This document shows positions 41,991 through 43,591 of a DNA stretch of 64,000 bases, piece after piece. The DNA comes from Escherichia phage BF17, in sequence record MW822008.1; one strand, 5' to 3'. The notes beneath the pieces were generated by a model. That model searched no databases. It had not been told where the DNA came from and saw nothing but the letters and a program-made list of their open reading frames with translations. The stretch's first letter is position 1. The number at the start of each line of letters is the position of its first letter. The position numbers and the translations under genes are program-made.

Positions 41991-42557
41991 ATGGTCAAAT
42001 CTTTATTACCGCCACCAAAACGTCACAAAATCAAAGAAATGAAAGAACAACGTACATTAAAGATGTACATCAATTTAGTTAAGTTACTGTGTAAAAGTCC
42101 ATCGCTCAAAGCAGAGTTTAAAACTGATGATGACCGCAAAGCACTAATTGAGATGAAGTATATGCTCAGTAAAATGTCCTTTTACAAATTTGTAAAAGAA
42201 TACGCATCTGACCCATTTAGTCCTCGTTGGAGAGCCAAACCAAGAGAGTATTTTTACGGTGGTTCATATACGGATCTCATTCAAGACACAGTGATGGGAG
42301 TTGAATTTGAAATCGATTATGAGCCGAATGGTGTGGAAAGCTGGCCGATTGAGAAACGTTTACCAAGTGAAGAAGAAATTTATGTTTATGCAAGAAAACT
42401 TTCAAATTTCAGTTCAAGAATTACTCTAGGCAATTTAGATTCATTTATTATTTTCTATACACGTGTTGGTGTAGATAAAATGGTAACTAAACTCAATGAA
42501 CTTTCATTACAACAAAAACAGATTAATGCATACAAAGACATTACTGATTTATACTAA
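41991..42557 (+). CDS. hypothetical protein, tandem paralog A
   Basis: 188 aa; shares D-x-R-x3-I-x2-KY-x-LSK and SNG-x-F motifs with next two genes; AGGAGG SD. Confidence 0.5.
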   Translation: MVKSLLPPPKRHKIKEMKEQRTLKMYINLVKLLCKSPSLKAEFKTDDDRKALIEMKYMLSKMSFYKFVKEYASDPFSPRWRAKPREYFYGGSYTDLIQDTVMGVEFEIDYEPNGVESWPIEKRLPSEEEIYVYARKLSNFSSRITLGNLDSFIIFYTRVGVDKMVTKLNELSLQQKQINAYKDITDLY

Positions 42558-42563
42558 TGAGGA

Positions 42564-43085
42564 ATGGATATGTTTTTTGGATCAGTTGGAAAACAAAACA
42601 GTACTTTAATTTGGCATGAAATTATCTTTAAAATTATATCTAAAAGCTACTCACTAAAGGATATTATCACCACAGATAATGATAGACGTATCCTGTTAGA
42701 TGCAAAATATAAATTGAGCAAACACCCTTTACTTTCTTTAATCATTGATTACGTTAATGATTATGAATCTAGTCGTTGGAAGTGGGAAGACGGCGGTTTA
42801 TTTCGTGGAAAAACATTCTACGGTGCGGAACGATATGTTTTCAGTGATACATCAAATGGCGTTAAGTTTGCTATTAGAAACTTTAACTCCAAAGAAAATG
42901 ATTATCTTGAAAGTGGAGTGAAAGTATATATCGATAATAATAGCAATGTACTAACATATGACGAATCACTAATTATGTTACAAATAATGCGTGGAGTTGA
43001 AGGTGTAAGAAACAACCTTACTAAATTGAAAATCCAGCAAAATGATATACATAATAGACAGAAAATTAAGGGTTTATATAAATGA
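42564..43085 (+). CDS. hypothetical protein, tandem paralog B
   Basis: 173 aa; paralog of 41991 and 43082 genes. Confidence 0.5.
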   Translation: MDMFFGSVGKQNSTLIWHEIIFKIISKSYSLKDIITTDNDRRILLDAKYKLSKHPLLSLIIDYVNDYESSRWKWEDGGLFRGKTFYGAERYVFSDTSNGVKFAIRNFNSKENDYLESGVKVYIDNNSNVLTYDESLIMLQIMRGVEGVRNNLTKLKIQQNDIHNRQKIKGLYK

Positions 43086-43591
43086 TTTCATTTTTCAAAA
43101 AGAAACAAAAAGTTGATGAAACCGGATTAGAATCGTTTCTGTGGACTCTTATCATCAAAAAAAGCCCATTGATGAAAGAATATGCTATCAATGATGCTAA
43201 TAGAAAAACTATCATTGAATACAAATATGAATTATCTAAATGTGATCCAATTGTTTATCACTTTGCGAAGTACTGTTCAAAAAATTTATCGGATATCACA
43301 ATCGACCACGAGTCAGTCCCGATGAGTTTTCCTTATGGTGATTGGGTAGATACTTTTGATATTTTTGATGGGTCAAATGGTTTCAGTTTCTTTTACTCGT
43401 CAAATAAAGCAAATGTTCGTATTAAAACAGACATAGGTTGGACACAGCATAGCTCAAATAAAGAAGATTATAATTTATTAGCTGACGTATACCGAAGTGT
43501 GAAGAATTCAAAGGATATTGATGAAAGAATTAAAAAGCAAAATCGTATATCTTTATCACTTGAAACATACAAGTCAAAGTATGGTGGTTAA
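43082..43591 (+). CDS. hypothetical protein, tandem paralog C
   Basis: 169 aa; paralog of 41991 and 42564 genes. Confidence 0.5.
   Translation: MISFFKKKQKVDETGLESFLWTLIIKKSPLMKEYAINDANRKTIIEYKYELSKCDPIVYHFAKYCSKNLSDITIDHESVPMSFPYGDWVDTFDIFDGSNGFSFFYSSNKANVRIKTDIGWTQHSSNKEDYNLLADVYRSVKNSKDIDERIKKQNRISLSLETYKSKYGG

Follow-up and report, generated by a model that had tools for sequence, protein, structure and literature searches.

What are the three small genes that follow one another at positions 41991-43591 of the stretch of Escherichia phage BF17 analysed here, directly downstream of a set of genes taken for fiber genes? The stretch (64,000 nucleotides of sequence record MW822008.1; "the window") had been read in a first-pass annotation, which described the trio as the product of serial duplication and proposed that its members are either dedicated chaperones or adhesins of the fibers or a diversified accessory family. 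The second description is the one that our analysis supports. The three genes, here called A, B and C, are paralogs with a putative promoter of their own; they head an operon that includes an RNA-repair enzyme, and their alleles vary with that operon and not with the virion genes upstream. We read them, tentatively and at somewhat short of an even chance, as early, fast-evolving host-interaction or counter-defense proteins tied to an RNA-repair island. The window belongs to Asteriusvirus, a group of RaK2-like jumbo myoviruses of ~350 kb; RaK2-like phages (121Q, PBECO4, RaK2, K64-1, GAP32, CBB) are candidates for therapy in which over 80% of the genes lack an annotation.

Three Paralogous Genes of a Single Family

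Genes A (41991-42557; 188 residues), B (42570-43085; 171 residues) and C (43082-43591; 169 residues) lie consecutively on the plus strand, where the first-pass annotation had placed them. They correspond to gp502, gp503 and gp504 of phage 121Q and to G17_00421, G17_00420 and G17_00419 of phage vB_EcoM_G17 (G17), respectively, and A also corresponds to gp321c of phAPEC6. The sequence AGGAGG (41980-41985) precedes A, and the start codon of C overlaps the stop codon of B (ATGA). The longest open reading frame (ORF) for B begins at 42564 and would encode 173 residues; its start is most likely the ATG at 42570, because GAGGA is present 6 nucleotides upstream, the orthologs begin with MFFG, and G17 is annotated in this way. 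The region 41900-43700 is identical (100%) to that of G17 and Sharanji and virtually identical (99.9%) to that of 121Q and phAPEC6. It is contained in 35 phage records, all of which label A-C as hypothetical.

A and B are related over their full length (BLASTP E = 8e-16, 30% identity), and the similarity of C to A (E = 9e-5) and to B (E = 3e-4) is limited to the N-terminal ~40 residues. Formal alignment therefore detects significant similarity in each of the three pairs, whose absence the first-pass annotation had named as the result that would count against duplication. Profile searches connect the three genes further: A and B match phrog_18641 over their full length (E = 6e-80 and 3e-85), as C matches phrog_7868 (E = 6e-58), while B also matches the family of C (E = 6e-12, residues 10-173), and C that of A and B (E = 5e-5). 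A hidden Markov model (HMM) built from the three genes matches only A, B and C among the 360 six-frame ORFs of the window, and neither this HMM nor a deeper one of the whole family finds a further copy there. Because the pairwise alignments, the cross-matching profiles and the HMM all point the same way, we consider the paralogy real. The next gene downstream, D (133 residues), was considered as a fourth copy and ruled out by the family HMM and by hhalign (probability 0.2%). In PHROGs, A-C are already catalogued as hypothetical proteins in two unannotated families; our results show instead a single family, whose members share a predicted fold, occupy a fixed place in the genome and fall into ortholog groups according to their position in the array.

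Two motifs had been proposed as common to the three proteins. The first exists, with its spacing corrected to D-x-x-R-x-x-[IL]-[IL]-x-x-K-Y-x-L-S-K, in which the invariant D sits three residues before the R. The second, SNG-x-F, is common to B and C only; its counterpart in A is VMG-V-E-F, and the signal in this region that holds for the whole family is D-x3-G/x-x-x-F.

A Putative Promoter within the Upstream Terminator

The late operon upstream of A closes with an intrinsic terminator (41928-41961, plus strand; also annotated as a terminator in G17), formed by a hairpin with a 10-bp stem (41928-41951) and a T-run. Overlapping it on the same strand is a sigma70-type promoter (41940-41968) that agrees with the consensus at 11 of 12 positions, and consists of TTGACG (41940-41945), a 17-nucleotide spacer and TATAAT (41963-41968). 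The -35 element sits in the loop and 3' arm of the hairpin, and the -10 element is followed by AGGAGG and the ATG of A. At the level of motifs, this bears out the earlier claim that the three genes have their own promoter, overlapping the terminator of the supposed fiber operon.

The promoter embedded in a hairpin recurs ahead of the leading family gene in each of the eight phages compared, which span four named genera plus the unclassified Munch. Apart from the window, these are UE-S1, JNE01, A4, Munch, Muenster, Yen9-04 and CBB (the last two with two promoters in tandem), and an equivalent hairpin is found at this place in each of the seven. The cassette basically consists of a -35 TTGAC(A/G) in the hairpin loop or 3' arm, 17 nucleotides, and then the -10 element, and it offers a reusable landmark for late-to-early operon boundaries in these genomes.

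Strong sigma70-like promoters (at least 11 of 12 matches) number 18 on the plus strand of the window, the one ahead of A among them, and two on the minus strand, with ~2.5 expected per strand, and almost all have the 17-nucleotide spacing; promoters for the host RNA polymerase are therefore dense on the coding strand. The upstream operon is preceded by a T4-late-type TATAAATA at 35840-35847, a placement that is kept in UE-S1, A4 and Munch. This octamer occurs only twice in the window (the other copy being at 20913-20920, minus strand), compared with 12.8 +/- 3.5 occurrences expected, and its rarity suggests selection against stray late promoters. For CBB, RpoD-like promoters have been described at predicted early genes and ATAAATA before late structural genes, together with an encoded gp55-like sigma factor (PMC5259590). 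By the class of their promoter, A-C would be expressed early or in the middle of infection, and not late.

Linkage to an RNA-Repair Operon

Gene D (43594-43995, plus strand; phrog_22376) is a conserved operon partner that is unrelated to A-C, and has orthologs in Muenster, Munch, JNE01, A4 and a metagenomic relative, L010. Its stop codon overlaps the start of a gene (43992-45224, plus strand; phrog_388) for a 410-residue nucleotidyltransferase of the Pol-beta type, assigned to the RlaP family by PF10127. The match (59.2 bits, against a cutoff of 23) covers only the N-terminal Pol-beta core (residues 13-131), and PF10127 is also found on the orthologs in the metagenomic relatives L010-L012. No matches were found between PDB sequences and either D or the nucleotidyltransferase. 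From A to the nucleotidyltransferase, the five genes are separated by gaps of 0-12 nucleotides or joined by overlapping ATGA start/stop codons, with no terminator inside the series, and A-C are genetically linked to the downstream D/RlaP operon.

Damaged RNAs are extended by RlaP, which adds one or two nucleotides at their 3' ends and contributes to restoring tRNA function (PMC12776372). Work on jumbo phages has interpreted RlaP, together with Thg1 and CCA-adding enzymes, as RNA repair that serves counter-defense, and has read DUF4326 as an enzymatic domain involved in conflict (PMC7824862). RlaP shares its operon with A-C, whose relatives in CBB, Yen9-04, Munch and uncultured phages are interleaved with genes for a Thg1-like protein, DUF4326 and an N4-cytosine methylase, upstream of RlaP. 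The RNA-repair neighborhoods of Iyer et al. (2021; PMC7824862) do not describe the A-C family, which, unlike the widespread RlaP, is confined to one clade and is without a recognizable enzymatic or RNA-binding domain. The DUF4326 gene itself lies between NrdD and NrdG in Asteriusvirus (35031-35363), and amid family members in Munch (locus positions 6688-6993), Yen9-04 (8581-8889), CBB and the uncultured L010 (8558-8860); because its position differs between Asteriusvirus and the other relatives, we conclude that it has moved within the locus.

The linkage extends to the way in which alleles vary. Identities were calculated gene by gene for six Asteriusvirus alleles (15 pairs) and compared by Mantel test. 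The mean identity of A-C follows that of D (r = 0.99, p = 0.011) and of the RlaP nucleotidyltransferase (r = 0.90, p = 0.003), and shows no correlation with that of the three proteins of the upstream operon, here called F (r = 0.25, p = 0.08). Co-variation with fiber alleles was the check that the first-pass annotation had itself proposed, and on these six alleles it fails. The separation is evident in single pairs, and in both directions: ph0011 and A4 share 89-94% identity in F, 35-42% in A-C and 61% in D, while the corresponding values for ph0011 and UE-S1 are 42-54%, 96-97% and 98%. PBECO4 and G17 are alike throughout (F, D and nucleotidyltransferase 100%; A-C 95-99%). Sliding-window identity and synonymous divergence (dS) place a recombination boundary at the junction of A with the last F gene, F939, and dS relative to UE-S1 falls from 1.48 in F939 to 0.45, 0.24 and 0.15 in A, B and C, respectively.

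Rapid Divergence under Purifying Selection

No other genes of the locus diverge as fast as A-C, which share only 27-42% identity between allele classes within a single genus, as compared with 61-68% for D, 74-88% for the nucleotidyltransferase and 39-76% for F. They are nevertheless under purifying selection, the ratio of nonsynonymous to synonymous divergence (dN/dS) being 0.12, 0.18 and 0.07 for A, B and C relative to UE-S1, and 0.05-0.27 relative to PBECO4. Positive selection was considered as the cause of the rapid divergence, and was ruled out by this range of values and by the mostly synonymous character of the differences from PBECO4. Across the 13-kb locus, G17 and PBECO4 are ~100% identical except in two patches, at 42250-43500 (A-C) and 45000-46500 (T178 and the 5' part of T929, both described below); since the differences are mostly synonymous, the patches are short recombination mosaics.

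Distribution, Age of the Duplications and Predicted Fold

A word-indexed search yielded just 12 clusters, all from Asteriusvirus. When 1.84 billion representatives were searched exhaustively with an HMMER profile, 35 proteins were recovered at E <= 1e-3, nearly all of 150-210 residues and most of them aligned from end to end. By tblastn, the carriers are Asteriusvirus, Alcyoneusvirus (RaK2, K64-1 and Muenster), the Salmonella phages Munch and 7t3, Eneladusvirus (Yersinia phage fHe-Yen9-04 and Serratia phage BF), Mimasvirus (GAP32 and CBB), the Erwinia pEa_SNUABM phages and Xanthomonas phage XbC2. Together these make up the whole RaK2-like clade, outside which no members were found, and PA5oct, a phage with RNA-seq data, is not among the phages that carry this nucleotidyltransferase or the A-C family. 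By HMM counts, each locus has two (Muenster), three (G17, UE-S1, JNE01, A4 and Munch) or four copies (Yen9-04 and CBB), and every copy is kept, in conserved order, across genera.

In a neighbor-joining tree calculated without bootstrap support, the first-position genes of Asteriusvirus form one clade and the second-position genes its sister; Muenster and Munch each have a single AB-type gene, which falls just outside the two. C-type genes, including gp236 of Muenster and gp174 of Munch, are in a separate clade, and CBB and Yen9-04 have additional lineage-specific pairs. Because the clades are specific to position, the tree indicates that the split between A/B and C predates the genera of the whole RaK2-like clade, and that the split between A and B predates the radiation of Asteriusvirus. 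Serial duplication thus did produce the array, as the first-pass annotation held, although it is ancient and clade-wide and not a local event in this phage.

Eleven residues are near-invariant in the family (in B numbering K27, S28, L31, D38, R41, K48, Y49, S52, K53, D95 and F102), as is a tyrosine located 0-7 residues from the C-terminus (Y172). Most members have a mildly basic pI (7.5-9.4), and a few are acidic. An earlier AlphaFold2 model of B from a shallow alignment of 11 sequences was unusable (predicted local distance difference test score, pLDDT, 48), but an alignment of 34 sequences gave a confident model (pLDDT 86.4; predicted template modeling score 0.78). In this model, four short helices at the N-terminus accompany a four-stranded sheet, and a helix of ~40 residues forms the C-terminus.

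Foldseek found no solved structure that resembles this model. A-C have no Pfam match at E <= 0.1, the 34 family members have no recurrent Pfam (E <= 1) or PADLOC match, and a profile search of PDB sequences returned only SAVED-domain noise (E ~0.5). Proteins with a head domain and a long helix (XRCC4-, PAXX- and SAS-6-like), as well as AcrIF13, were considered and are treated as unrelated: scores were below accepted thresholds, Foldseek was empty, and there is no sequence relationship. Judged from the model and these searches, the family is without a detectable relative by sequence or fold. The array is ordinary as a genomic phenomenon; its interest, a moderate one, lies in an orphan family whose confidently predicted fold has no match and which occurs in phages of therapeutic relevance. 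Three genes that had been "hypothetical, next to fibers", as well as relatives from at least eight host genera, can now be described as a clade-specific family defined by this predicted fold, a fixed slot, a sigma70-type promoter and linkage to an RNA-repair operon.

Host Interaction or Counter-Defense as the Favored Reading

The reading that we favor would work as follows. A-C head the compact operon A-B-C-D-RlaP, which would be driven by a host sigma70-type promoter inside the terminator of the preceding late operon, and they evolve as one module with the downstream RNA-repair and counter-defense genes and not with the neighboring virion proteins. The paralogs may be small alpha/beta proteins, each of which binds a partner of its own that changes rapidly; the likeliest partners would be factors of the host, or RNA-targeting effectors of its defense that the adjacent repair enzymes counter. 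The binding surface would comprise a patch of conserved polar residues (K27, S28, D38, R41, K48, Y49, S52, K53 and D95), together with the long C-terminal helix that ends in the tyrosine near the C-terminus; this helix might also mediate oligomerization. If the reading is correct, the two to four retained, fast-diverging paralogs would provide a compact system in which to study the diversification of host-interaction proteins by giant phages.

Several points weigh against it. No fold or profile likeness to known anti-defense, RNA-binding or regulatory proteins was found, and none of the described families of defense-system or anti-CRISPR proteins gave a profile or fold match. Typical anti-defense genes are patchy in distribution, while A-C are universally present at a fixed position, like core genes. 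That position is itself suggestive in another direction, as in every genus examined the family's first gene lies directly behind the last gene for a large virion protein. Of the ~199 phage records with RlaP, most are without the A-C family, and the early timing of A-C is read from promoter motifs only. Finally, gene A is broken into two ORFs in Salmonella phage SD-2_S15 (locus positions 7592-8145) which, if real, implies that at least one copy is dispensable. B and C likewise look truncated or fused in the CMSTMSU and SD-1_S14 records; in all three records the disruptions are either sequencing errors or real losses of individual paralogs.

A more specific proposal goes beyond the favored reading, and we give it a correspondingly small chance. 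A-C may be the founders of a family with a previously unseen fold and form a paralog-diversified counter-defense set, each copy neutralizing or decoying a different RNA-targeting immune effector of the host (e.g., an anticodon nuclease) alongside RlaP and Thg1, or they may be repair regulators that are nucleotidylylated on tyrosine.

Repair Subunits or Transcriptional Regulators as Possible Alternatives

We consider it unlikely that A-C instead serve the RNA-repair enzymes as accessory or specificity subunits, which would bind RNA (such as damaged tRNA ends) or RlaP, Thg1-like or DUF4326 proteins and so direct or regulate repair. The shared RlaP operon and the co-varying alleles would agree with such a role, as would the one-by-one interleaving of family members with Thg1, DUF4326 and methylase genes in CBB and Yen9-04 and the mildly basic character of most members. 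In one variant, modeled on HEPN-MNT systems, the nucleotidyltransferase would nucleotidylylate the conserved tyrosines, of which two (Y49 and Y172) are near-invariant; however, A-C lack the R-x4-6-H motif of HEPN proteins and match neither a HEPN nor an RNA-binding fold. Because most phages that carry RlaP lack the family, A-C are not obligate RlaP subunits and are not required by the enzyme, and Muenster and G17 have the family without Thg1. The rapid divergence of A-C relative to the nucleotidyltransferase is likewise unusual for subunits of conserved enzymes.

A slightly smaller chance is given to the idea that A-C are early DNA-binding regulators of a winged-helix-like type, which would reprogram transcription with each paralog acting at its own sites.

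The Upstream Virion Proteins

The late operon in front of A-C (35840-41923, plus strand) contains, after its TATAAATA element, F898 (35882-38578), F195 (38590-39177) and F939 (39194-41923). F898 and F939 are 28% identical from end to end, and F195 is a mini-paralog made up of just the ~85 N-terminal and ~120 C-terminal residues that the two have in common. None of the three has a Pfam relative, and F898 has no match among PDB sequences. F898 is gp323c of phAPEC6, which was seen in virions with four peptides, and is the only F gene with direct evidence from virion mass spectrometry (MS). In the phAPEC6 record (locus positions 4680-7485), F195 and F939 are unannotated though the DNA is 100% identical, and the virion MS search for that phage was probably unable to detect them. 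Given the presence of F898 in virions and the lack of profile or structural relatives, we describe the F genes as virion-associated paralogs and not, as in the first-pass label, as fiber genes, a role that is not demonstrated.

A-C themselves are non-virion proteins, in that no family member was detected in the virion proteomes of phAPEC6 and CBB. The GenBank "structural protein" labels in CBB were dropped as MS evidence after being checked against the MS table of the paper.

It was proposed that A-C are assembly chaperones or adhesin partners dedicated to these virion proteins, and they do share features with Tfa (Caudo_TAP, PF02413), gp38 of T4 and gp57A. Like these, A-C are small (~170-190 residues) and have receptor-binding or fiber-like genes directly in front of them; both Tfa-type chaperones and A-C are absent from virions or sub-stoichiometric there, so that the proteome results fit a chaperone. 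In Asteriusvirus and Munch, three copies follow three F genes, and A, which is nearest to F, has the intermediate dS relative to UE-S1. Unlike Tfa-type chaperones, however, A-C match neither Caudo_TAP nor any other chaperone profile, and are set apart from the F operon by a terminator and, at the motif level, by a different class of promoter. Their alleles are decoupled from those of F in both directions (ph0011 with A4 and with UE-S1). In the Klebsiella phages, unrelated fibers of the depolymerase type fill the upstream slot and the family is still kept, both in RaK2 and in Muenster, where two copies stand behind six or more such fibers; with four copies in CBB and Yen9-04 as well, copy number fails to track fiber number outside Asteriusvirus and Munch. 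Because of the decoupled alleles, the unrelated fibers and the copy numbers, the proposal is not supported, and we regard it as improbable; it is the other half of the first-pass suggestion, that of a diversified accessory family with its own promoter, that stands. Some link to virion assembly is still conceivable, because the slot after a virion gene is conserved in every genus, but position alone is no basis for annotating these genes as fiber chaperones.

That A-C are merely decaying or functionless duplicates in a large, gene-rich genome, as the lack of a known function or domain and the disrupted copies in SD-2_S15, CMSTMSU and SD-1_S14 might suggest, is hardly credible and is effectively refuted by purifying selection and by clade-wide retention in order, as well as being at odds with the conserved motifs, the confidently predicted common fold, and the conserved promoter and ribosome-binding site.

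The Variable Module Downstream

The operon is followed in the window by a variable tail-fiber module (45266-48775, plus strand), which comprises an ATAAATA element (45266-45272), a 42-residue virion ORF (45302-45430), T178 (45393-45929), T929 (45931-48720) and a terminator (48752-48775). ATAAATA/TATAAATT motifs at 45266-45285 precede the virion ORF and the T178/T929 fiber genes, and gp314c and gp315c of the module were found in the phAPEC6 virion. The end of the module, at 48722-48775, has a layout that mirrors the one in front of A, with a perfect TTGACA-17-TATAAT directly ahead of the hairpin.

The 42-residue ORF, T178 and T929 are missing from UE-S1 and ph0011, which keep A-C; in both of these phages a terminator and an ACP-like gene come directly after the nucleotidyltransferase, so that the module is a presence/absence polymorphism. 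In Muenster (locus positions 19106-20024), Munch (10459-10905) and Yen9-04 (10511-11402), the nucleotidyltransferase is followed by small tandem paralogs that end in (D/E)Y(D/E)CGY, and it is the position of these paralogs that the tail-fiber module occupies in G17.

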